A stretch of DNA of 61,301 nt, counting the filler, from Dugesia japonica (taxonomy: Eukaryota), in the NCBI GenBank assembly GCA_001938525.1. It is 5 parts of 5 records of this genome, joined end to end, with 100 filler letters (N's around TTAATTAATTAA, not from the genome) between each part and the next. Parts side by side here need not be neighbours in the genome. Positions count along the whole stretch, not along the records: positions 9,343 to 31,543 come from MQRL01628734.1; 4 more parts are not named here. One strand, written 5' to 3'. This document shows positions 16,596 to 56,795 of the stretch, piece by piece. Under the pieces are notes generated by a model. The model had not been told where the DNA came from, made no database searches, and saw only the letters and a list, made by a program, of their open reading frames with translations. Both the position numbers and the translations under genes were made by a program. Positions within the stretch are counted from its first letter, which is position 1. Every line of letters starts with the position of its first letter.

Positions 16596-18400
16596 TTAAC
16601 CCTCGAGTACTGTCGCCTGGGTGTCCGACACTCTAAGGAGTATTTTAGAAATGCAATATTTTTAATCTTGTCCATACTATTATATCCAACTCGACAGTAG
16701 CTGCAATTTTAAGGATTCTGAATTGATTGAATGTAATTTTGTTAGAATAAAAGCATTTTTTTCTCAGTTGTCGAGTTATATTTAGACTAATGTGTTCTCT
16801 TTGTGCTCTTTTTCTCAATCTCTATGTAAATTAGTGCTGTTTTTAGGATCTAAATTGCTTCTTCAGTGAAACCAAATTTATTTCACAATAATGAATGCTA
16901 GAAATTATAGAAATTTAATACATATTTTGTCCATAAGTAACTGCTTGTGGTTTTATTAATAAATTAGACAACAAAAAACCTCTGTTACAAACTTCGTTAA
17001 ATACATTCAAATAATTTTTCCTAATCTTAGTAGATTTGTTGAGTTTATTCTCACTTCTTCTGTGGATGCTATATTGTTGGTATATTATCTCTAGTTTACG
17101 GTTATTTGTAATTTCATCAGATGCAGAAACATTCAAAGCAAAACTTTTCAGTTACTGCTTTCTGAACTTTTCAATATTTGCTGACTTTGAATTTTTTCGG
17201 AGACAACACTTTTACCGTCTACATTGAGTATGCCGCCATCACTTTGAAGTTATCAACAGTCACTTGCACTTAGGTATTTAATCCTTTTTTATTATCCATT
17301 TTTTAAAAAAACTTTTTGAGGGAAATTGTAATTGTAGAATAAATCTTTATTTAGTTATGCCTGAATCTTCAATGAATGANTTTGTAAGTCAAAAATATAA
17401 TAACAATACCAATCGAACAAAATAAGACCAACAACAATCAACTTAGAAGAGCCTGATATGCGACTAGCGCATTTATTTATGATTTAATCAAATCTTTGTA
17501 TATAATTCAACTGAACAGTTAATTATAATTTAATTTTTATATTGTAAANNNNNNNNNNNNNNNNNNNNNNNNNNNNNNNNNNNNNNNNNNNNNNNNNNAA
17601 AAAACTTTTTGAGGGAAATTGTAATTGTAGAATAAATCTTTATTTAGTTATGCCTGAATCTTCAATGAATGATTTTGTAAGTCAAAAATATAATAACAAT
17701 ACCAATCGAACAAAATAAGACCAACAACAATCAACTTAGAAGAGCCTGATATGCGACTAGCGCATTTATTTATGATTTAATCAAATCTTTGTATATAATT
17801 CAACTGAACAGTTAATTATAATTTAATTTTTATATTGTAAATTTTAGAATGTGTAGCGGTAAAGTTCAATTAAGTAGTGGCAACGGCGCGAGCAACTATT
17901 TGTTTTAATTTTTTTTAATTTGAAATTTTTTGAAATACTTTTTAATGTGAATAGTAGATACTTTAACTAGGATTTTTTTGAAACACTTGTCATTATCTTC
18001 TATTACATAAATAATTGTTTATCTCGTTCGTATGCTCGGGTATATTCTAATATTTTCAATCTCATTTAGAACAGGAAATTTGTAATTTCATTAGATGCAG
18101 AACTATTCAAAGCAAAAATTTTGAACTACTGCTTTCCGAAATTCTCCATATTTTCATTCGTTTTGGATTTTTCTGAACAACAATTCTACTGTCTCTAATG
18201 AAAATGCTGCTATCACTTTCATAGTTATCGCTAAAGTCACTTTCACACAGGTATGTAATTACATTGTAGCTGACGGATTGGATGATGTTATAATGTTGAG
18301 AGGACAAATTAAATTTATATAAACTGTGAAGTGAAGTAAAGTGCATTAAAATTTAACTTTAATAGAATCCGATTCGTGAATTTTGCACAAAGGGTTTAAA
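16596..18400. mobile_element. Possible piggyBac-type non-autonomous remnant(s)
   Basis: Begins TTAA-CCCT and has AAGGGTTTAA near 18390; contains two diverged homologous segments (~17100-17280 and ~18080-18260). No catalytic motifs seen. Confidence 0.35.
17303..17841. repeat. Near-exact ~245-bp direct duplication flanking a 50-N gap (likely assembly overlap)
   Basis: 17303-17548 equals 17599-17841. Confidence 0.85.
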
Positions 18401-23870: not shown

Positions 23871-24331
23871 TTAAAATAAATTTAGAAGTGAATGTGTGTC
23901 AATTTGAGTATTAAGATTCGGATTGTGCAACCAAATTCTCAAAGCCTCACACGCAATTCTTTCAAAATAGTTACCAAAACCGTTGTTCAAAACTGTAAAC
24001 TCATCAAAGCTTATTTTGTTTTTTCTNTTTTTGCAGCAACAGGCATGATCTAAAACCGAACTTTTCCTACTCAATTGCATATCAAAAATATCCACTCAGG
24101 ATAGTTACAGAGACGTGTAATACGAAGATGATGTTTTGTCTCTCCAATGTACGTGGCATCACACCCGTTACAATTAAATTGATAAACTAAGTTAGCGAGT
24201 AAAGCTTTTGGTGTAGTAGATTTGTTGATTAAATAACTTGAGGTTTTCTTTGAAGTGAAAATTAATCTATATTTATTATCATCAAAATATTTCATGAGAG
24301 AGCATTTTAATGATATATAATTGCAAACCAA
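23871..24331 (-). pseudogene. Penelope-like GIY-YIG endonuclease remnant
   Basis: NLVYQFNCNGCDATYIGETKHHLRI...ACEALRIWLHNPNLNTQ; frameshifted. Confidence 0.88.
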
Positions 24332-25413
24332 TCCGATTGATTCTAAACTTCACACATGTATATTCTATCAACATTCAACCAATACGAATATCACACACAT
24401 GTATGTATTGAAACAAAGAACAAACAATAAAAATAATGCTCGTCAACTGAATATCAACTGCTTCATGCAATGATTAAATTCAACAAGTCAAAAAGTTGTA
24501 AATGCTTTGTTTAACTTGCAGTGGCTTTGCATTTGTATTGCACTTATAATGTTTAAACAAAGAATTATCAATCAAAACATGCTAATAATCAAAAGTACCA
24601 TATTTTCAAACTATAAAATAAATACTTATCAACACTGAGTATAAAAGCAAAATGATTTTATAGGTTTTCATTATTTCAATATGAAACTAAGTATTGGATC
24701 AATATAAGATAAAGTTATGACCATAGCTGTGGATTACGGAAAGCCTACGTAATTTCATAGAATCCAAATGAAATTCCTCAGGAGACCAATATTATATTTG
24801 TTTCAAGTATTGTATTTTTGTATTTTATTATTTAATATTTTTATTTATGAACCTGTGAAGATACAACGATCTACCTATAGTTTGGTGATATCTGACATTG
24901 GCTCCAAAGACAAGAATACTTTGAATTTATTNNNNNNNNNNNNNNNNNNNNNNNNNNNNNNNNNNNNNNNNNNNNNNNNNNNNNNNNNNNNNNNNNNNNN
25001 NATTGTATTCGAAAAATCACAACAATATATGATTCAGGTTGAAATACAAGGAGTCAAGAAAAATGGAGACAACACTAACTCAATTAATAGAAAATTTAAA
25101 TCTTCAATTTGGAAAATTTCGAGACATTTTGTAAATGTTGTTATTATAATAAATGCTATATATTTATTTGTCTTTTTAACTAACTCTATTTAAATCGTAA
25201 TATTTGAAAATTAAATTTAAAAATATATAAAAATCTTATCTCTAAATAATGTCTATCANAAGAATAAAAACTCTATTTCAATTAATAACTAAAAACTTTA
25301 TGATAAATACATTACTTTTAAAACTCTATTAATTAATAATAACTACCAAATCAAATAAAAACTTTATTATAATTAACTAACAAATTGACTATATGAACAA
25401 AGAAAAACAAGTT

Positions 25414-25557: not shown

Positions 25558-25932
25558 TCTTTTTCTAAATAAAATGATTGCGATAATATTTTGAAATAAA
25601 AAAATTTATAAATAATAAATAAATAAAAAATTAATATTACTTTTTTCGATAATCAGGTCCTCCTGACCATCTAAACCTGCTGATTCATCACAACTTTTTC
25701 TGTATTCTTTAATTCTTATGAGATTCATTATTTAAAATTAACAACTGATTAAAATGAAATATGTAATGTATTTTAAACAATTCTCTGTTTTACACAAATC
25801 GACCAATTAAAACCGACCAATGAAAAAAAAGTAATAATCAAACAAGGAAATGCCTTGTTATACTTGTATTCATATTGCATGACTGTGCATTCTTGTTGTG
25901 AAATTAAACAATTAAGTTATATAAATCAGAAA

Positions 25933-26342
25933 TTATATTATTATATATCCTTGGTAGTTTAAATTCTTTATACCGGGTATTATAATTTTTTCTGATAAAA
26001 ATACGTTTTCACATACAGGATCATACTTTTTAAGTCGTAATGCTTGGAAACAATTCTTGTTCAAATGAGAATTTTGTTGTTTTTGCTAATTTATACAACT
26101 TGATAACTTGTCCCAAATTTATTACAATTGTTAATGATTGCAAGCGAATATCTTTAATATCATACTTTAATTTTTCCTTTTTCTAATGGTTTTTTATATC
26201 CCATTATTCGACAATTTCCTGATTTAAAGAATATTAATGTATATTTCCTACTTTTGTCAACAAATCGAAAACAATAGAAAAACTTCATTTTGCTTGTTAA
26301 AACTTGCGACACTTTACCTTTGTAATTAATATTAACTAACAT
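25933..26342 (-). pseudogene. Divergent, intronless TATA-binding-protein (TBP)-like gene with two frameshifts
   Basis: Reconstruction gives MLVNINY...TLIFFKSGNCRIMG (repeat 1, cf. TALIFSSGKMVCTG) and IRLQSLTIVINLGQVIKLYKLA...FSFEQELFP/ALRLKKYDPVCENVFLSEKIIIPG (repeat 2, cf. YEPELFPGLIYR...IFVSGKVVLTG). Confidence 0.8.
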
Positions 26343-26467
26343 GATTAATGATTTTTTAATAAATGAGGGTGTATATATACATATTTTCCAAAAATAAATT
26401 TAATTGATTCATTTAAACAAAGACAAAATATTATTATAAACAATGCATTAAATAAAACTTTTATAAA

Positions 26468-26689
26468 ATGGAGTTGAGAAATGATGCTGTTTATCAATTT
26501 GTAGGTCCAAGCGGTAGCGGAGAAACCTTATTCGTATGCAAGTTACTAAAATCAAATTTATTTTAATCAAAATTTAACAAAATATATTGGCACAGAGGTG
26601 CAAATGAAGACCATGGGTTGACGCAATCAGAGTTTTGCAACATTAAAATGAAAATTATAAATGGATTTGATAAAAATACGGGCCACTAA
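26468..26689 (+). pseudogene. N-terminal remnant of an A32/FtsK-like packaging ATPase (Polinton type)
   Basis: MELRNDAVYQFVGPSGSGETLFVCKLLKSNLF*SKFNKIYWH: N-terminal Walker A (K>E) followed by FV..LL and I.W, with one internal stop; truncated. Not in the ORF track. Confidence 0.65.
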
Positions 26690-26809
26690 ATGATAAAGCA
26701 TTAAAGGTTTAATTCTGTTATGGAACTAATTTCTTAATTAGAAGACAACTTGAGGTATAGTTATTTAGGATATGAAAACGATTTATTAAATAAAACCATA
26801 AATATGATA

Positions 26810-27162
26810 TCACGGCCGCAGAGTTTGAGTCCCCTTATCTATCATAAGTTGCTCTAAAGGCATTTTTTCCTTTAGCCTGAGGATGTCATTTACCAGTTTA
26901 GTCTCTCGGACATGGAGGGACCGTATAACTTCTGCGAACGATTCAATCTAGGACTTCCATATGCGTTCTTGTGCGTACGATGCCTCAGCTTCCTTACATA
27001 TGGCAGTGCACTTTGCTCGGTAGCGTTTTACCTTGGCGGTAGCCACTTCAGCTTCAAATCGTCGTTTGGCCAGCCTATAGAGCTCCCAGGAAATCTCTAT
27101 ATCCTCACTGGATTCTCTCATTTTCTTGGTGGGAGCTATGTTTCGATTTAATGAAGAGTGCA
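26810..27162 (-). pseudogene. Orphan mini-gene family A, copy 2 (coiled-coil-like, ~117 aa, one internal stop)
   Basis: (A)TG-HSSLNRNIAPTKKMRESSEDIEISWELYRLAKRRFEAE...; homology to 29425-29816 continues past the stop at 26948. Confidence 0.7.
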
Positions 27163-27390
27163 CTAAAAAAAGAAATATTACAATTAGGTTTTGATTACTC
27201 TTCGCAACAAGACAATAATAACTGATACACAATCACACCAAATCGGATTGGCAATGAACAGAAATGGATGACCGGATAAAGCAACGACAAAAAAACTACA
27301 ATATTTAAACCGACCAAATGACTTCACAAGCAATATTTATTTGTGATAACTAAAATTACTAAAANGTATGATAGAGTAAAACAGAGATCC

Positions 27391-27573
27391 TCATTCTTCT
27401 TCAATATCTACCTTAGGAAATAACGGGAACATCTCGACGAAACAAATCAGGTCCGTTTTGTCACGATGTTCGATTTTCCCCTTTGTTTAAATGTGAGCCA
27501 GCAGTTGTCTCAACCTGGCTGATCTCCTTTCTTTGCATATTAATCTTAGAGTATGGATGAATCCGGCCGTCAT
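27391..27573 (-). pseudogene. Orphan mini-gene family C, copy 3 (60 aa, one internal stop)
   Basis: MTAGFIHTLRLICKERRSARLRQLLAHI*TKGKIEHRDKTDLICFVEMFPLFPKVDIEEE; paralog of 30506-30688 and 28290-28496. Not in the ORF track. Confidence 0.7.
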
Positions 27574-27852
27574 TATCTAAACTAGGCAATTATTATAAAC
27601 AAAAATATAACATCACTCAACATGGATACTTGACTGAGTGCACTAAATTCATAAAGAAAATAAATGGATACAGAAGATCTCCATAAATCTATGCTGTAAT
27701 AATACCACGAGATTTACCCACCATCCCTTTTTCAAAAGGAGACAGAATAATAATAATTTATCAGAAGAATAAAATCGAACTATATCAACTTATTATTAAA
27801 AGACACAAAAGATCAATTCAAAAAATCGAGCAACAGTAATTAGTTTCGACCA

Positions 27853-28199
27853 TTATTGTTCAGGTTCCGTGTTGGTCGTGGGATCTAAATTTTTAGCGTT
27901 TTCCACACCCGCGGGTTCCCTAACTCCCCAAAGCAAGTTGGTAATAACAGCTTGCACTGCTGGGGGTGGAGCCAGAGGCTGATAACTGAAGAGGGTTACT
28001 TGGTTACGAACCGGGCCAGTCCAATTTTGATGATTCTGCCTTTTTCCAAAAGTTTGAATACGTGCTACCATGGCCTCTATGGCGGGTAAATTGGATCGGT
28101 CTGAAAGGATACCCGGATCTCGATGGTATGGATTGATATGGCGTCGAAAAATCATATGACGCGTTTGTCGATCGTAAACTCGTTCCCATATGACATCCA
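27853..28199 (-). CDS. Orphan mini-gene family B, copy 2 (115 aa)
   Basis: Open frame, clear paralog of 30008-30364 (IFRRH.NP.HRD.GIL.D.S.LP..E..VARIQ.F...WTGP...NLLWG.REP.G.E); start is tag|TG. Confidence 0.75.
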
Positions 28200-28289
28200 C
28201 TAAAATTATAATACAAATAGACGATAATTAAAATGTTCACACAATTAGATTTAAAATCATAAAATTTATATTTTAATTCATTTAGATTT

Positions 28290-28496
28290 TTAATGCAACA
28301 GCATATCATCCGGTAGGGTCAAGAACTTCATACTCTGGATAACCGAGGGGAACATCTCCGAGATACATTGTAAATCCTTCTCATCTGGATGTTCCATCAA
28401 CTTGGGGAATAAAAGATGACCGGTCAGTCGCCGACCGCGTATGGGTTCTCGTTTTTCTAACACACAACACAACACGGTCCGTAATTCGTTACTCAT
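28290..28496 (-). CDS. Orphan mini-gene family C, copy 2 (68 aa)
   Basis: Contains EHPDEKDLQCISEMFP; acceptor lies 7 nt upstream of the ATG. Confidence 0.7.
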   Translation of the reverse strand: MSNELRTVLCCVLEKREPIRGRRLTGHLLFPKLMEHPDEKDLQCISEMFPSVIQSMKFLTLPDDMLLH

Positions 28497-28959
28497 TCCA
28501 GCACTAATATTTAATTTATAGGTTCAAGGCCAGAACAACCGCAACCAAACAAAATATGTTTCATTATAAGGTAACCCATTTAATCGCGTTGCTGATCTAG
28601 CCATCAAGCCCAGTATTATTAAGCAACAAAATATCCATTAAAATTACAGTTGTCAATGGGGTTTGATTTTGGGTGTTCCGGTTAACCCAATATAGTTACT
28701 GTGTTGGGGTTCCACCTGAATTGGATGGTAATAAAAATGTTGCCGGGGAAAAGACAGCCCTCAGGGGAACCCGTTCAAGAATTTAACCTACCGCCACTTG
28801 GGTAGGTATTCAGTTTATGGCGGTTGACCTCTCTCTTAATGGGAGGTAGACACCCATAAACCTTTGCATTCGGGTTCAATATTTTCCCTAGTATTATCAG
28901 CAAAAGAAAGAAAATACCATATTAATTATATACATTTCTTTCATAAACCGAAGAAATAT

Positions 28960-29342
28960 TTATAACAAATCCAGCGCTCCTGGATCTAACCATTGGGCCG
29001 GATCGGTCACTGAAAAGTTAAAAGCGTGGATGTCGTCATTTTCGTCCCACTGAATCCAAGTGGGGTTGCCTATTTGGTGGGAGAGATCGGTGATGTATTG
29101 TTTAAGGAATTCGATCTTTCTCAACAGCAGCTGTGTGTTTTCGGTTTCTAGGGCCTTAGTTTGGATCGCTAAATCGTTTTCTTTTTCAACGATGAAGTCT
29201 AATTTCTTTATAAGCTTGTCCCACTGGGCAAGATGTTTTAGAAGGGCCCTGCCTGTCTTACGTTTTAGATGCCTTTCGATAAGGAGTCGTCGCATAATAC
29301 GATGGCACCGTCGAAGGCTGTTAGGAAAATTGATCCGTGGCA
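28960..29342 (-). CDS. Orphan mini-gene D (127 aa; basic N-terminus, coiled coil, acidic/Trp tail)
   Basis: Open GC-rich frame; the ATG is restored by a 46-nt GT-AG intron 29343-29388 (acgA|TG). Confidence 0.7.
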
Positions 29343-29424
29343 CTAAATTTGTAAATATTAATGAGAGAACATAATTAATTAAGGGTACTCGTATGTTAAC
29401 CCAATTTTATCAAATTAGAGTAAT

Positions 29425-29816
29425 TCAGACAGAAATAAGATTTATTAACAAAGTCTTGTATCCCGGTTTGGTTTGGGTACTTTTATTGATCATGAGTGGT
29501 TCTAAGTAAGACTTTTCTTAAAGTAGCAGGATGTCGGCAACCAACTTATTTTCACGGTCCTGGCCTGACCGGATGAGCTCGGCAAATGACTCGACCTGCT
29601 TTTTCCACACCTGTTCCTGTGAGTGGGATGCTTCAGCTTCTTTCCTATACATGATACATTTTTTCTTATAACGGGATACCTTACTGTCGGCCGCAGCTAT
29701 TTCTGCCTCCCACCGACGTTTTGCGAGTCGATATAGGTCTCAAGTGAGTTCTAGATCCTCACTTATCTCTCGGAATTTCTTTGTAGGGGCTGGTGGGTGG
29801 TTGGAAGAAGAATGCA
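29425..29816 (-). pseudogene. Orphan mini-gene family A, copy 1 (two internal stops; 3' end approximate)
   Basis: (A)TG-HSSSNHPPAPTKKFREISEDLELT*DLYRLAKRRWEAEIAAADSKVSRYKKKC...; not in the ORF track. Confidence 0.7.
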
Positions 29817-30007
29817 CTAAAAGAAAGATATTTATAAAACTCAACAATAACTTTCATCATTTCTTTTTTAAATTCTAAAAGGACACAATTGTTCAAGTGC
29901 TAGACTATCCCAATTAAACCTAAAATATCTAAAGAAATTACGCAGGACATTGAACATTTATTTTAAACAGAGATAACATGAGAAGTTCACTAGTTTAGGT
30001 GCATCAT

Positions 30008-30364
30008 TCACTGAGGAGGAGTGGATGAGTCGGGTACCGGTGCGGTGTTTTCTGAGTCTTCACGGCCTGAAGGTTCCCTTATCCCCCAAAGCAGATTGGA
30101 AATAAAAGCCTGAATTGCGGGAGCTGGGGGTGTTATCGCAGTCTGGTACTTGAACGGGGTTGCTAAAGACCGGGTCGGCCCTGTCCAAGCTCTGTATTGC
30201 TGACGCTCGCTAAAATCCTGGATCCGAGCCACAATCGACTCTACTGGAGGCAGTTTTGAGCAGTCGACCAGGATGCCCGCATCCCGGTGGTGGGGATTGA
30301 AGTGCCGTCTGAAAATTATTCGACGGGTTCGCCGGTCTACTATCCGCTCACATATGGAATCCAT
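30008..30364 (-). CDS. Orphan mini-gene family B, copy 1 (118 aa)
   Basis: MDSICERIVDRRTRRIIFRRH...; acceptor tag|GA-ATG; AATAAA downstream. Confidence 0.75.
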   Translation of the reverse strand: MDSICERIVDRRTRRIIFRRHFNPHHRDAGILVDCSKLPPVESIVARIQDFSERQQYRAWTGPTRSLATPFKYQTAITPPAPAIQAFISNLLWGIREPSGREDSENTAPVPDSSTPPQ

Positions 30365-30505
30365 TCCTAAGAATAACATAGGCCTAGTAAAATTTAAATG
30401 ATACAACCTTAAGACATATTAAATGAATTATATAAGTAGTTGACACAACATTTTATTTCAGAGGGTATTTAAATAAGCACATACCCGTATATCAAAAGAA
30501 AAGAA

Positions 30506-30688
30506 TCACTCCTCGTCTAAATCTACCTTCTCGTCCATGGGAAACATCTCCGCAAAACAGCAAAGGTCTGTTTCGTCTGGATGTTCTATTTTCNCTCTGG
30601 TTATTATATGGGCTATTAACTGTCTTTGACGAACAGCTTGTCTTTGTCGTTCTAACTGTTGCAGAACTCGACACAATTCGGCGGGCAT
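30506..30688 (-). CDS. Orphan mini-gene family C, copy 1 (60 aa)
   Basis: Contains KIEHPDETDLCCFAEMFPMDEKVDLDEE; a 35-nt GT-AG intron (30690-30724) ends 1 nt before the ATG. Confidence 0.72.
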   Translation of the reverse strand: MPAELCRVLQQLERQRQAVRQRQLIAHIITRXKIEHPDETDLCCFAEMFPMDEKVDLDEE

Positions 30689-31065
30689 ACTAAATATGAG
30701 AAAAACATAATTTTAAATCGTTACTTGCGATTTAATCCCTTAAGGGAAAAAAATAGAACCATTATTACAGTCAGATGATGTTAATGGGAACCCCTATGCT
30801 TGCCCTCTGCATAAGCTAATATAAATTCAACCCTGATTATTGAGAAACTGATCCATGTGCAACATCCTGGTAATGAAGGCACCACTATCACCTTACTATT
30901 GACACTACTCGCTATAAAAAGCATTATTGGTAATCATATCAACAATCCGAGTCATAATGTTAATGCGAATATCACTTATCAGGCAAAAGGTGATGGAGAT
31001 AATAGCAATACCGAATTGTTATATCTCTAAAGACAATTTTTCCTTTAAATAGTTTTAAATATCAT

Positions 31066-31308
31066 GTGATGGGTTATACTGAACTTAACAAATTTACTTA
31101 TACAGTTAAAATAAATAATATTACTAAATCATATATTAAAGAAATATTTTCACAAATTTTTGTCCTTGACATAAAGTTTAATGAAAATATAAACTTTATA
31201 GAAATAACTTTACCTAAAGGAGTTTACATTAATCATATTTATTTTTATCATAAAGAAAATGGAGAATATGGAGAAAATTTATCCCAGTTTAAACGAAGAA
31301 GAAGATAG
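31066..31308 (+). pseudogene. 3' fragment of the Maverick fibre-like gene (second copy)
   Basis: KFTYTVKINNITKSY...NINFIEITLPK matches the repeat unit of 47431-49745; same overlap with the next gene. Confidence 0.7.
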
Positions 31309-31543
31309 AAATTGTTTTACAATTTTAGATTTAAAAAATAAACTGTCATTATCTAGAATTAGAGATTTTGAAAATGACTTGTACTTTATAAAAGATAAAA
31401 TTAAACATTATAAGAAAATACATAAAAGATGGAATAGAATTGACTCATCTATAAAATATACACAAATAAGTGTTAGTGTTATAATTGGAATTGGAGGTAT
31501 TGTATTAATTACACCAGTTGGAATTGCACTTGCTACAATTGGT
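31259..31543 (+). CDS. Maverick 2-TM protein, second copy (truncated by contig end)
   Basis: 44/50 aa identical (TILDL...YTQI) to the 46780-47441 protein. Confidence 0.85.
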
Positions 31544-31643
31544 NNNNNNNNNNNNNNNNNNNNNNNNNNNNNNNNNNNNNNNNNNNNTTAATTAATTAAN
31601 NNNNNNNNNNNNNNNNNNNNNNNNNNNNNNNNNNNNNNNNNNN
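31544..31643. other. Artificial contig-joining spacer
   Basis: 44 N + TTAATTAATTAA + 44 N. Confidence 0.97.
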
Positions 31644-31660: not shown

Positions 31661-32025
31661 ACTAGATAAATTACCATCTAGATTTTGTGGTAATGTCTCA
31701 AACATTTACTAGAAGTATATAATAATAATCTTAATATTACAAGAAGTATATTAAAAATCATAAACATTTACTAGAAGTATGCAAAATGTTTTGAAAATTT
31801 ACTAGAAGTATATAATATTTCTTGAAAATTTACTAGAAGTTGATAAAGATTTCAAAATCCTATGTCAAACAATGGGAAAATAATTCAAATATTTACTAGA
31901 AGTATAAAAAATTTTAAAAAAATTACTAGAAGTATATAAAATTATCAAAAAGTTACTAGAAGTCACTAAATGTTTTATGAAATTTATGAGAAGTTAAGGC
32001 AATCTTTCACAAATTTACCAAAAAC
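31661..32025. repeat. 31-bp-period array with conserved core TTTACTAGAAGT
   Basis: Cores (ACTAGAAGT, at most 2 mismatches) start at 31708, 31739, 31770, 31801, 31832, 31895, 31925, 31955, 31986; intervening sequence varies. Confidence 0.85.
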
Positions 32026-32524: not shown

Positions 32525-34230
32525 ATGAATACAAACAATATGAATGAAAACCTAATGCAAGGCAAAATCAATGAAGTAATTTTAATTTTATTAATTAATT
32601 CAATTTAATTAATTTTTTTAGAATGAAGAAGTTAAATGAAAATATGAAAAGGAAGATTTCTACTGAAAATTATGGAAATAATAAGAATTAACGATGATTA
32701 TATTCGTAAATCAGATTCCAGTCTTCAATTAAAGGTTAAGAATTTCGAATTGAAATCGGTCCAAATTCCATAACACGTAAAACATCAGGTTGAAGAAGTT
32801 AATAAATTCAAACATTGTAAGGTGCAATTCGGATTTCACGCAGAATTTGAAAAGAAGAATGATGATGAAGAAGAAATTAAAGAATGGTCATGGTCGTACA
32901 AGGCTATGGAATACTTAGAAGATTTTATAGATAAAATAATAGAAAAGTCAAATGTAGAAATTTCAATGTATTCAGAGCACAGTAATGGACGGAAAATTAA
33001 AAGAATATTAAAGCTACGATTTATTTTGACGAAATATGTCTCAGTAATTTATCTATCTGGTCGATCATACATTCGAGTTCTCCAGCATTACACATATCTA
33101 ATGCAATAGTAAATGTACACAATACAGACAACAGATGTCTTATATATAGCATTTTGGTGGCGCTTAAGTACGATTTAATTAAAGATCATCGAACATCATA
33201 ATAGGTTAGATCAATTACTTTTGGCTCCAGAAAATAAATGTCCACCTGGATTAAAAATTTAAGAAGTTGTAGATGACACATGAACCATAACGACATTATA
33301 TCGTATATTGGCGATTAATAGAATTATATATAAAGCTCGGGGCTCGTGTGACTGCAGTACATAGAATAATTCAGTTCAAACAAACGGAAATATTTGCCAA
33401 TTATATTAATGTAAAGTCCAAATTTGAAAAGGATTTCTACAAACTATTAAATAATGCGTTATATGGTAAGACTGTGGAGAATTTAAAGAAGCGTATGAAT
33501 CTCCAGCTATGTAAAAATGAGAAAAAATTTGTAACTTACACTAACAAAGTTACATTTAAGCAAACAATGAATATTGCAGAAGGATTCAAGGCTGTATTGT
33601 TAGAGAAAAATACCATTTCTCTAGATAGACAGAGTTATATTGGTCATATGGAGCTAGATTTGAGTAAATTGCGTATGTATACGCTCCAATATGAAGAGTT
33701 GGAAAAATATCGTCAACAATTTCTTTGTAATATTGATATTATTGTTGGAGATACGGATAGTTTTTTCTTATCATGTACCGGAGTACATATAAACCAACAC
33801 TTGTCTCAAATGAAATCGGATAGTCTGCTGGATACAAGCAATTACCCAAAGGATCATCCCCTCTATTCAAATAATATGGCCAACAGAATTAGATTGTTTA
33901 AAGATGAAGGAGAAGGTGAAGATTATACTGAATAGGTATTCCTAAGGCCAAAATATTATAGTTTGAAGAAAGAACATTCTAGTGCGATAATGAAGGCAAA
34001 AGGAATCAGTTTAAAACAAACAGATATCAATCATCAAAACTATTTAAATGCATACAATAAAGAAGAAGAACAAAACACGAAAATTATGCAGACTAGCTTT
34101 CGATCGATAAATCACCAGGTTTACACAATAGAGAGTAACAAACACGTATTGTAATGCCTGGATGATAAGCGCTTTTGGGGTGAAAAAATACTAGTATGGC
34201 CTATGGTCATTATAAAATTAATAATTAAAT
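32525..34230 (+). pseudogene. Polinton/Maverick protein-primed family B DNA polymerase, internally deleted and frameshifted
   Basis: N-terminal GRSYI...AIVNVHNTDNRCLIYSIL; KDFYKLLNNALYGKTVEN (KxxxNxxYG), GDTDSFF, LDTSNYPKDHPLYS, LFKDE, LRPKYYS, KAKGI, DDKR...AYGHY. Confidence 0.92.
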
Positions 34231-49754: not shown

Positions 49755-50234
49755 TTATGTGGCTTCGCTTCTGTTGCTATTTTTTAATATTAATTTATAA
49801 AGTGATAACATTTCAGATATTATAAGATCAAACTCAACATATTGCAGCTTGTATAAAAAATAAATACATAAGATTCCACATATTTCAGTGTTAAAATGTT
49901 GCACTTGAATTTTATTATAAATCTTGGTATGTGGTTCTATTTCATCTAAAGGTTTTAAACCAAAAGAATCAAAGTAATAACCTCTAGAGTAAGCAACCCA
50001 ATGTGTTCCTTTTTGATTTGAGTTTTGATAATTAAATATAATATTTCCATTTAATTCTTTAGGTGTCTTTCCGTAGGTCAGCGTAGCGCATTCATTTTTC
50101 ATATAAATCTCAAGATTTAGATCTAAAAAGTTAGCAATTGAATATAAATCAAAATTTGTTGTTGTGTTGATTCCAAATGTTTTTAAAAAATCTAATAGCG
50201 AGTAATTCAATCTCTTTTCTAATAAACTGTACAT
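49755..50234 (-). CDS. Adenain-like (C5) cysteine maturation protease
   Basis: GTHWVAY (His), YYFDSFG (Asp), VQHFNTEICGILC (Gln, Cys). Confidence 0.93.
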   Translation of the reverse strand: MYSLLEKRLNYSLLDFLKTFGINTTTNFDLYSIANFLDLNLEIYMKNECATLTYGKTPKELNGNIIFNYQNSNQKGTHWVAYSRGYYFDSFGLKPLDEIEPHTKIYNKIQVQHFNTEICGILCIYFLYKLQYVEFDLIISEMLSLYKLILKNSNRSEAT

Positions 50235-50325
50235 TTTCGTCTTTTTTCGCGCTCTTTCTTATAATCGATATTTCTGCACTTCGTTTTATTTTCGTCTTTT
50301 CGGCTCTATGTTTTTTTATAGATCT

Positions 50326-50463: not shown

Positions 50464-50563
50464 NNNNNNNNNNNNNNNNNNNNNNNNNNNNNNNNNNNNN
50501 NNNNNNNTTAATTAATTAANNNNNNNNNNNNNNNNNNNNNNNNNNNNNNNNNNNNNNNNNNNN
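50464..50563. other. Artificial contig-joining spacer
   Basis: 44 N + TTAATTAATTAA + 44 N. Confidence 0.97.
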
Positions 50564-54213: not shown

Positions 54214-56795
54214 CAGTAGCGTAGCCAGGAATATATGAAAGGGGGGTTTAAATTTTTGTCAAAATTTTTGTTTTGGTTTACTACCATAAAACAACAAAGA
54301 CGCCAAGTATTAAATAATGACGTCATTAGCTGATTCTTTAAAGTACGGAGACAACGTATGGGACATCAGAAAAAATAAATAATTATAGTGTACTGAGAGT
54401 ACAGATTACAGGCAGGTGTCCCATCCCAGGTGTATTAAATAAATAAATTAATAAAATCCTAATAATAATAAAAAGGGAATAAAGTAGGAAAAACAATTTT
54501 TATATACAATTGTTTTGTTTTTTTATTATTTAAGTGGATGACCTTTTTTTAGGCACATAAAGTCGCATTAGACATTCTAACTATTCAAGGTTTTCAACTA
54601 TTCGAATAGAAAAATTTTAAAAATATTTGATTATTCAATTATTTGAATATTCGAATAATTTACTAAAACTTTAAAAAAGATTATCAGAAATAAATATTAT
54701 AATAATAAAATTATTAAAAAATGGTTTAATATTTTTATTGCTTTTGTTATAGAGGTATCTGCTAATGCGAACGTCAAAATTGATTATACTGATTTGTATG
54801 AGTTAGTGATTAATCAGTGATACGAAGGAAAGTTGTATCTGAAACGGGAAGTTTTAATAAAAGCTATAAAAGTAAATATTAAATAAAAGGAAGATCGCAC
54901 AAGACTATTAGTTATTTACATATTTTATTTATTACTTTTTGTTAGGTAAATCTTCAATTGGCAATTAATTTTCCAAATCAAAACTAATATTTTGAGACAT
55001 CANTTATTTTACTACTACAACTCTGCTATTTGGAAATAATTATAATTGAAAAGCTTTGATGGAAACTTATTACCGATTTAACTTACTTTCTATTTGCTAA
55101 AAATATTAAATAATAATTATTTACTTATATCCCCCTTCTTAAGAAACTTCTAAGTTTTTTCACATTTCTTTCTAATCGCTGTCCATTTTTTTCTTGTACT
55201 GAATACCGCCTTTCGTGAATTCTCTCAATTATTCGAAAAGGTCCTTCAAATCTGTATTGACTTTTATTTCCTTTTTCTATCTTGATGAGCACAAAATCGC
55301 GCACTTTGAATTCTCTATTTGTATTCCCATCTGAAGTGTTTTCTTTAGTTTTATCTAAAACATCTGACTCATACCATTTTTCTCTGCTAATTTTTTTTCC
55401 AAATACTATCTCAGCTGCGCTTTTTCCAGTCGTCTTTTACATCATTTTCAATTTTATCATCAACAAAATTTTCGATATCGTCCAAGTCCAAAGCTTCATT
55501 AGGAGTAGAATTTATTGGTATATAGAAACAGTTCATTACGGCCAAATGGAGTACATGATTATGGCAAAGCTGATTTAAAACATCTAATATTTTCCCGTAT
55601 TTTTTCATTACAGCTGCCGCGTCGTTAGTTGATGCAATAAAATCACTTTTCAAAGAAATACCAAACTTTGCCAACTTAGCTTGAAATGAATGTTTAATAG
55701 TTTCTTCATTTCCCTGCTTAATATTTCCGTTAAACCCAGTACATAGCATTCAAATTTCTTATTCCATTCCAAATACATGAACTGTTACGTTTACATAACG
55801 TAAGATGGTGCAATCTGTCCATTCATCCATAGTAATAGCAAATTTACGATTTGCTTTTTTAAATTTTTCAAATTTATTTCGCAGTTCAATACATTTTTCT
55901 TTATNNNNNNNNNNNNNNNNNNNNNNNNNNNNNNNNNNNNNNNNNNNNNNNNNNNNNNNNNNNNNNNNNNNNNNNNNNNNNNNNNNNNNNNNNNNNNNNN
56001 NNNNNNNNNNNNNNNNNNNNNNNNNNNNNNNNNNNNNNNNNNNNNNNNNNNNNNNNNNNNNNNNNNNNNNNNNNNNNNNNTACTTGTTTCAATTTTTGGC
56101 TTTTTCTGCGGAACATTATTTTCTTCATAATTTTCACTTGATACAGATTTAGATGTAAATATGTTGTGTGGTAACTTCAAATTATTAATCATAGGAGTGG
56201 TGGAAACTTCTACACCCTACGTTCGCGTTACAAGTACCACATGTGGCTTCACCAATTTTTTTTCTTTCTTAAAAAACTTCCACACCTCGGATTTTTTTGA
56301 CGTGGCTAAAAATCTAAATATCTAATTATGTAAGATAATCTAACAAACTTTAGTAAACCTTTCAAATATAAGAAATATTCAAAAATAATTAATGTAACAA
56401 TTGATTACGATTTATTTTAATCATTAAAATTTTTAATGACAATAACAATTACTTATTGCGACTGTTTTTCAAAAGCCAACTAAAATAATATCACACAAAA
56501 CACATTAAAAAAATTCAAAATGCGATTCTTTGGAACGTTTTTCAAAGCTTACTTTGATAATCAAAGTTTTTTGAATTTTTACAACTTATAATTTTGTATC
56601 NTTCAAAAATATTCTAATAATTTTTCCAAATATTCGAATATAAATTAGGCAATTAACACAAAAATATATTCGAATACCAAGTATTCCAATATTCAGTTTG
56701 GAATCTCTGAGTCGCATCAAAAATATTTTTTTTTCATACGCCAATGCGGGGGGGGGGTTTAACCTCCTAAACTCTCCCCCTTGGCTACGCCAATG
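54214..56795 (-). mobile_element. hAT transposon with decayed transposase and nested Gypsy fragment
   Basis: Ends CAGTAGCGTAGCCAGG / CTTGGCTACGCCAATG; BED-finger-like SEVWKFF...ATCGTC; DEWT; STNDAAAVMKK...LCHNHVLHLAV (CxxH). Confidence 0.85.
54940..55380 (-). mobile_element. Gypsy 3' LTR, PPT and pol tail, same family as 1005-4322
   Basis: Aligns with ~1005-1435. Confidence 0.85.

Follow-up and report, generated by a model that had tools for sequence, protein, structure and literature searches.

Polinton-type elements encode a family of small proteins with the fold of the TATA-binding protein (TBP). Our preferred reading, to which we assign a probability of about 0.6, is that in intact elements this protein serves as a one-protein late-promoter factor that binds the box YATAAACR and recruits host TFIIB and RNA polymerase II (Pol II). 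The core of the box, ATAAAC, stands before the packaging, integrase, and capsid-type genes of these elements and hardly ever before the TBP gene itself, and the protein therefore likely switches on the element's late genes. A broken copy of the gene lies in the 61,301-nucleotide stretch of Dugesia japonica DNA analyzed here (the window).

Results

A broken TBP-like gene in the window

Six-frame translation of the window showed TBP-like words in three frames of the minus strand, starting from an ATG at 26342. The gene (25904..26342, minus strand) was delimited by tblastn of three intact homologues, P0001 to P0003. P0003 aligned in three pieces with 56, 64, and 62% identity (combined E 1.5e-35), in agreement with the first-pass annotation, which had read an intronless, minus-strand TBP-like gene at this place. 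The Pfam TBP family (PF00352), suggested there as a check, was the sole match of one frame piece, a weak one (E 0.044), and scored above the cut-off in all four intact homologues tested. Two other details had to be corrected. First, instead of two frameshifts, three frame changes were found (near 26170-26180, 26040-26050, and 25945-25950), as well as a small local lesion (near 26265-26280) and a number of substitutions at sites conserved in the family. Second, the last helix was recovered in a further frame in the P0001/P0002 alignment and continues to a stop at 25906-25904, so that the gene spans about 146 codons rather than the proposed ~135; intact members mostly have 144 to 165 aa. The window copy is a dead remnant, in which both promoter boxes described below are still kept.

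A second, more divergent TBP-like remnant, overlooked in the first-pass annotation, was found on a different assembly segment (39950-40135, minus strand). It covers the second repeat only, at 50 to 56% identity (E 6e-13 and 2e-15).

Facing the first TBP gene is the 5′ remnant of an A32/FtsK-type packaging ATPase (26468..26689, plus strand). The divergent orientation and the 125-bp spacer had been described correctly, the start codons at 26342 (minus) and 26468 (plus) being exactly 125 nt apart. The remnant is 60% identical over 70 aa (E 7e-24) to the ATPase of locus L008, one of those that accompany the TBP gene in related elements. It has an altered Walker A motif and an in-frame stop at 26564-26566; the match ends at 26677, and an unrelated insert cuts the gene off near 26690. 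The Walker-A open reading frame had also been called a Polinton A32-type ATPase distinct from the one at 44621, and this was borne out: none of the 27 TBP-accompanying ATPases matched the ATPase at 44621 at E 1e-3, and a profile of them matched it only over 37 Walker A columns.

Other gene remnants and elements in the window

The window is AT-rich, repeat-laden eukaryotic DNA divided into five segments by four identical linkers, N44-TTAATTAATTAA-N44, at 9243-9342, 31544-31643, 40392-40491, and 50464-50563. The linkers look like artificial contig joins, and because of those at 31544-31643 and 40392-40491, the features that flank them need not be true neighbours. A broken remnant of a protein-primed DNA polymerase (PolB; 32792..34178, plus strand) is 50% identical to the PolB of locus L014 (E 1.9e-91); a linker separates it from the first TBP gene, and the two need not belong to one element. 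Among Polinton genes, only the ATPase remnant is directly linked to the TBP gene at 25904..26342. Weak remnants of the usual TBP neighbour (family c3/c14/c17, see below) were detected by tblastn at 24765..24929 (plus strand, E 1.7e-4) and, directly upstream of the second TBP remnant, at 40239..40346 (minus strand, E 8.5e-4). The order at the latter site, c3 and then TBP (40239..40346 and 39950..40135), is that of loci L009, L014, and L019 to L025.

A different and better kept Polinton occupies 40637-50258. It encodes a double jelly roll (DJR)-like capsid protein (E 8e-22), an rve integrase, a Pox_A32 ATPase, and a weakly matching C5 protease; the DJR capsid, a phospholipase A2 (PLA2)-like domain, and the integrase share one reading frame. 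No TBP match was found in this element with the TBP-family homologues as queries, and ATAAAC was absent before all six of its genes whose upstream regions were printed.

The insert that truncates the ATPase (26690-31000) carries tandem, apparently spliced, minus-strand mini-genes, is low-copy, and has a GC content of 37 to 42%. Two of its units (26823-28200 and 29471-30363) share about 64% of their DNA sequence and 58% of their protein sequence, and no convincing Pfam match was obtained within it. At its first nucleotide, 26690, contig depth drops about a thousand-fold or more in two runs. It had been suggested that a second Polinton-like lineage encodes its own TBP, possibly driving this mini-gene array. 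The lineage and its TBP-fold protein stand, and the link to the array is unsupported: the insert (26.7 to 31 kb) is a different and much rarer sequence, with one minus-strand ATAAAC in 4 kb.

Several further features were observed. An inverted pair, 31208-31543 and 46780-47395, is 81 to 84% alike, so that a relative of a gene of the second Polinton abuts the linker at 31544. An array of ~31-nt units with a TTTACTAGAAGT core (31690-31954) precedes the PolB remnant and may mark the end of an element. Retroelement remnants with reverse transcriptase, aspartyl protease, zinc knuckle, and integrase tail lie at 1890-3528, 55128-55436, and 235-555; the stretch 235-555 also holds a GIY-YIG piece, to which a sequence near 24121-24187 is related. 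At 17306-17841, identical 243-nt copies flank an N gap, a duplication that is probably an assembly artefact.

The family belongs to the TBP superfamily

A search with the first window piece returned three intact proteins of 149 to 153 aa at 56 to 68% identity. P0003 as a query returned 129 proteins at E 1e-5, and PF00352 was present in 120 of the 120 matches listed. An exhaustive search gave 114 clusters at E 1e-10, cellular-type TBPs entering only from about E 3e-10. When the AlphaFold model of P0003 (pLDDT 95.8) was compared with the PDB by Foldseek, the first 41 chains listed were TBP (best E 2.6e-09, TM 0.69), at sequence identities between the family and solved TBPs of 18 to 26%. The intact homologues and the predicted structure place the family in the TBP superfamily (PF00352), with its saddle fold. 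An unrooted tree was built from 36 family members (6 chosen and 30 drawn at random from the nonredundant set) and nine other TBPs, TRF2-type proteins not being among the nine. The family formed one side of a 100/99 branch, with the other TBPs opposite. It may go back to an ancient capture of a TBP from some eukaryote.

These data bear on a simpler explanation, that the window gene began as a retrocopy of host TBP or TRF2, inserted next to a Polinton fragment and since decayed. The copy is indeed intronless and broken, and the tree is silent on TRF2. However, its identity of 56 to 68% to a large intact family, compared to 18 to 26% between that family and solved TBPs, the 100/99 branch, and the regular linkage to Polinton genes (next section) leave this origin with next to no probability. 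A recent host retrocopy, which the first-pass annotation had already rejected on grounds of divergence, is refuted by the same three results.

In related elements the TBP gene accompanies Polinton-type genes

A family profile confirmed 167 metagenome loci, the best 80 of which, all chosen by TBP and partial in extent, were kept for analysis. The ATPase was found in 27 of the 80 loci, the rve integrase in 16, and a capsid-type gene in 10; ORF clustering plus Pfam gave PolB in 8 and the C5 protease in 6. At least one Polinton-type gene was present in 36 of the 80 loci and in 19 of the 23 that are at least 4 kb long, which answers the call for a look at the neighbours of genomic copies. Good examples are L012 and L014, which unite TBP, ATPase, integrase, and PolB in the order TBP, ATPase, small gene, integrase, c6, small gene, and capsid-type gene, with PolB opposite, and L047, which unites TBP, ATPase, integrase, and protease. 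In these relatives the TBP gene belongs to Polinton-type elements. The first-pass annotation had named two outcomes that would overturn its reading, the lack of a TBP fold match, or copies nested within host TBP/TRF and never linked to ATPase or capsid genes; neither was obtained. No polymerase subunit or TFIIB was found among the neighbour families scanned in the TBP loci.

Among the accompanying ATPases, 9 of 19 had a Pox_A32 match in Pfam (lowest E 1.5e-07). The capsid-type family, c8, has proteins of 403 to 427 aa, and its capsid identity is weak by sequence: Capsid_N (E 0.0073) and DJR-like (E 0.039) matches came from 1 of 10 members each, and the alignment with the window's DJR protein had 19% identity over 295 columns at a probability of 4%. 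In 24 of 27 loci, TBP and ATPase are in tandem. In this host, the family is characterised by the close head-to-head arrangement, to which 7230 and 4438 contigs from two runs align; the TBP-ATPase spacer is covered by contigs from runs carrying four organism labels.

The commonest TBP neighbours, c3, c14, and c17, are one family (for example, L033:1479-1835, L035:2934-3512, and L054:943-1713), of which c12 is a probable upstream exon. Its Atlas look-alikes were DUF5871/DUF2738 proteins of large DNA viruses (score 0.92 to 0.95), and its members are probably single-strand DNA-binding proteins. In a subgroup (L059, L066, L068, L074, L080, and L081), KilA-N/DUF3627 genes lie near TBP, and several of these loci have C2H2 zinc-finger genes and tandem c2. 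A tRNA-like sequence was noticed by eye between the TBP and ATPase genes of L059 (~3460-3525). Two Polinton-type contigs, L085 and L086, are within bacterial metagenome-assembled genome records and are probably stray.

The ATAAAC box marks packaging and capsid-side genes

Promoter elements were counted in the 100 nt upstream of each gene after removal of near-duplicate regions, which reduced the TBP set from 74 to 52 and the ATPase set from 27 to 23. ATAAAC was first seen by eye in printed upstream regions and then counted; it was also the top 6-mer in an unbiased ranking of these regions. It occurred before 102 of 130 packaging and capsid-side genes, compared to 10 expected from dinucleotide shuffles, and once in antisense. 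All 23 ATPase genes had it (antisense 0, shuffle mean 1.9), as did all nine capsid-type genes, 11 of 14 integrase genes, and 3 of 4 protease genes. The frequencies for other families were 10/13 for both c6 and the PLA2-like gene, 7/7 for c9, 5/7 for c10, 4/5 for c20, 14/18 for c2, 4/8 for c11, 1/6 for c15, and 1/3 for c31. Before TBP genes it was at chance (4 of 52, 3.4 expected), and likewise before c3 (1/14), c14 (1/7), KilA (0/5), c12 (0/4), and c16 (0/4); the counts for PolB (1/3) and c17 (2/4) are small. Without removal of duplicates, the box preceded 99 of 125 late genes compared to 14 of 129 early genes, by labels that were assigned in this analysis, partly from position, the box-bearing c2, c9, c10, c11, and PLA2-like genes having no known timing.

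Several properties of the box were apparent. First, its flanks extend it to (T/C)ATAAAC(A/G), that is, YATAAACR: the base preceding ATAAAC was T or C in 92 of 100 cases and A in 4, and C occupied position 1 in 34 of 100. Second, the sister hexamers ATAAAA, ATAAAG, and ATAAAT were found before 18, 9, and 15 of the 130 genes. Third, 51 of 114 boxes lie between -45 and -30, a TATA-like geometry, and a canonical TATA is absent from 89 of the 102 box-bearing regions. Finally, when the loci were grouped into 23 lineages by a cut at 60% TBP identity, 20 of these had the box. TBP genes themselves have a different promoter: canonical TATAWAWR preceded 20 of 52 (5.2 expected), and in 13 of these 20 upstream regions a TCA follows 30 to 32 nt downstream of the TATA.

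Could ATAAAC be an RNA signal instead, namely a variant poly(A) signal that serves the gene ahead of it in tightly packed tandem arrays? It resembles AATAAA and is often near the end of the upstream gene. However, the preceding base is nearly always the T or C noted above, TBP genes lack the box although they, too, lie behind genes on the same strand, and the box in the window stands between two head-to-head genes, where no plus-strand gene ends. This reading is improbable. Alternatively, the box may be a late promoter that is read by another element protein, such as c2, the zinc-finger protein c11, or an unrecognised factor, the TBP-like protein having other targets such as the termini or the origin. 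Several conserved neighbour families without an assigned function could supply such a reader. Against this, TBP and the box occur in both deep subgroups, and c2 is the only one of these neighbours that does so as well; c2 is itself preceded by the box in 14 of 18 instances, and the box is TATA-shaped and at TATA distance. We consider this alternative unlikely, though less so than an RNA signal, and prefer the TBP-like protein as the reader of the box.

Two elements served as TBP-less controls, one of them a partial contig; IMG/VR yielded none. Of two loci found via their ATPase alone, L086 has a TBP gene and the box before four genes, and L085 has no TBP in 4.4 kb and no box before its ATPase. 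Because all 80 main loci were chosen by TBP, box and TBP may be co-inherited without interacting.

The window family carries both putative promoters back to back in its 125-bp spacer. On the ATPase side is the candidate late-promoter box TATAAACA (26435..26442, plus strand), its ATAAAC at -32 from the ATPase start codon; no variant was listed in 26435-26444 among contigs of four runs. On the TBP side, TATATATA lies at -37 from the TBP start codon within the palindrome GTATATATAC (26371-26380, minus strand), which contains a canonical TATAWAWR. An initiator-like TCATT (26347..26351, minus strand), whose role we infer, follows at -9, 30 nt past the TATA box. No substitution was listed in 26372-26380 among contigs of the four runs, and rare 2-nt insertions occurred at its edge. 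The palindrome had been singled out at first pass. It is present as described, but it is not special in itself: the window has 250 perfect 10-mer palindromes, a chance level, and this same one recurs within a coding region at 40995. The idea that it is a private site of the TBP-like protein is likewise unsupported: it fits the canonical TATA box, which precedes 20 of 52 TBP genes, and probably serves the TBP gene as a host-type (early) promoter. The first-pass annotation had overlooked the actual candidate target, TATAAACA in front of the ATPase. RNA reads related to these copies numbered 39 and 531 in two runs, came from both strands, and none was 99% alike; 90% and 69% of them continue into unlike sequence, and no discrete transcript or start site was seen in either run.

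The DNA-binding face is changed and the new residues are conserved

Residues were counted in 177 full-length members at <80% identity and mapped onto a plant-type TBP (P0240) and solved TBPs, the register in the first half of repeat 1 being alignment based. Three of the four intercalating phenylalanines are kept (F41, F100, and F116, in 176 to 177 of 177), as are N4 (170), P101 (163), and K120 (158); the first intercalating Phe of TBP has no aromatic counterpart. Also conserved are the stirrup glutamates of the TFIIB-contact type, E96 (169) and E98 (175). At the sequence level, therefore, the acidic C-terminal stirrup that contacts TFIIB in cellular TBP is kept here. The rest of the DNA face differs. 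N6 (169 of 177) and R47 (176) each replace Val, M49 (177) replaces Thr, S71 (164) replaces Asn, T73 (151) replaces Val, R104 (155) replaces Ile, and N114 (177) replaces Leu; N6 forms an N-x-N pair with N4. Among these 177 members, the canonical combination of four intercalating Phe with a hydrophobic DNA face bearing two Asn/Thr pairs is absent.

The protein had also been described as having two repeats. The TBP fold holds, but not two full repeats: repeat 1 is shortened, with a 13-residue gap relative to P0240, and helix H2 is absent from the P0003 model, no long helix following strand 45-51. Neither the model nor the P0240 alignment thus shows the canonical arrangement of two full repeats that both close with a long helix. 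In TBP-DNA structures, repeat 1 touches the 3′ half of the box. This half is the site of the new C, which makes N6 and R47 candidate readers of it. The strong conservation of the changed face argues for a different specific ligand rather than decay.

A third explanation keeps host TBP as the reader. It would use ATAAAC as a weak TATA variant, delaying expression until the DNA is amplified, and the TBP-like protein would be a decoy that ties up TFIIB or further general factors and so damps host transcription. The kept stirrup glutamates fit a decoy, as do the changes to one of four intercalating Phe and to most hydrophobic DNA contacts. The C(-25) variant of the TATA box is presumably TATAAAC. 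Wild-type plant TBP has been crystallised on the C(-25) variant (PDB 1qn3, according to its title), so host TBP can bind such DNA. However, a decoy needs no near-invariant new residues on its DNA face such as R47, M49, and N114 (176, 177, and 177 of 177), and reading by host TBP sits poorly with the 89 of 102 box regions that have no canonical TATA and with the 34 of 100 boxes that have C at position 1. We give the decoy the same small chance as reading by another element protein, and a dedicated TBP-fold late factor remains the preferred interpretation.

Discussion

The proposed mechanism is as follows. In the early phase, host TBP/TFIID would transcribe the TBP-like gene from its ordinary TATA-plus-initiator promoter, and the host machinery would also transcribe the replication genes that lack the box. 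The polar DNA face of the product, with its near-invariant Asn, Arg, Ser, Thr, and Met, would then read the variant box, which has C where TATA has A/T at position 7 and T or C at position 1. Its acidic stirrup would bind host TFIIB, and the bound protein, together with host TFIIB and Pol II, would turn on the packaging, integrase, and capsid-type genes. In cellular TBP, helix H2 is the docking surface for TFIIA, TAF1, Brf1, and Mot1. Its loss would remove these contacts and place the factor outside normal TBP control. The outcome would be a one-protein early-to-late switch, whose two promoters in the window family would stand back to back in a single 125-bp spacer. The protein is predicted to favour YATAAACR over TATAAAAG.

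We advance a broader claim with more reserve, at slightly under even odds: that a widespread lineage of integrating viruses of 15 to 20 kb has a true early-to-late programme run by the smallest switch known, one stripped-down TBP plus YATAAACR, the protein retaining its TFIIB contact and having lost the surface by which cells govern TBP. If true, this would be a sign that TBP-bearing Polintons make particles on their own, and it would provide a natural orthogonal TBP-promoter pair. The box and its candidate factor make the timing of Polinton genes, and the standing of animal Polintons as autonomous viruses, testable questions, and the test needs one small protein and an 8-bp site. The family is also a natural experiment on TBP, on which surface residues set box specificity and on the functions left to a TBP that lacks helix H2. 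The window copy itself is dead, and it is the family that is of value.

Compared with cellular TBP (PF00352), the family shares the saddle fold, three of the four intercalating Phe, the first Asn, and the PELFP stirrup with two acidic residues. It differs in being about 30 residues shorter, with a short H1 and no H2 in repeat 1, in the missing aromatic counterpart of the first Phe, and in seven near-invariant, mostly polar DNA-face positions. Most Nucleocytoviricota and mirusviruses encode their own RNA polymerase. Their TBPs are likewise virus encoded and have the same fold (best E in BFVD, 1.2e-08), but the P0003 model matched giant-virus TBPs more weakly than those in the PDB, and they are at most 20% identical to the family. 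For mirusviruses, a TBP is reported in 59% of genomes (PMC10132985).

The gene complement of PolB, rve integrase, A32-type ATPase, C5 protease, and a capsid-sized gene in one cassette is that of Polinton/Maverick elements and adintoviruses. In the literature that we found on Polintons together with TBP or promoters, the only trace of such a protein is the gene label "TBP" among MELD viruses in the legend of Fig. 5 of PMC8502044. That figure could already show an element of a similar kind; in the text searched, the label comes with neither a description of the family nor an analysis of its residues, and neither a function nor a promoter motif is given for it.

The closest functional parallel is with the vTBPs of beta- and gammaherpesviruses (KSHV ORF24, EBV BcRF1, and HCMV UL87). 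According to 10.1101/2025.08.25.672222, ORF24 reads TATT late promoters through an N-x-N pair (N425/N427) and a polar face. It is 752 aa long, has a domain that binds Pol II and additional domains that bind DNA, works in a six-protein complex, and does not have the TFIIB-contact glutamates. The present family shares the N-x-N pair and the polar DNA face, likenesses that do not imply homology, and in the proposed model also the use of host-type early promoters and a variant TATA-like late box. It differs in being a bare core of ~150 aa that keeps the TFIIB glutamates and whose box is ATAAAC, not TATT; the structural match to BcRF1 is weak (E 6e-3, TM 0.36). Because ORF24 is multidomain, belongs to a six-member complex, and has no TFIIB glutamates, the best reading, which we regard as somewhat better than an even bet, is that in the proposed model the family would work like the ORF24 system without being a member of the ORF24 family. 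If the broader claim above holds, these elements would have arrived independently at a counterpart of the herpesvirus TATT arrangement that needs none of its five helper proteins.
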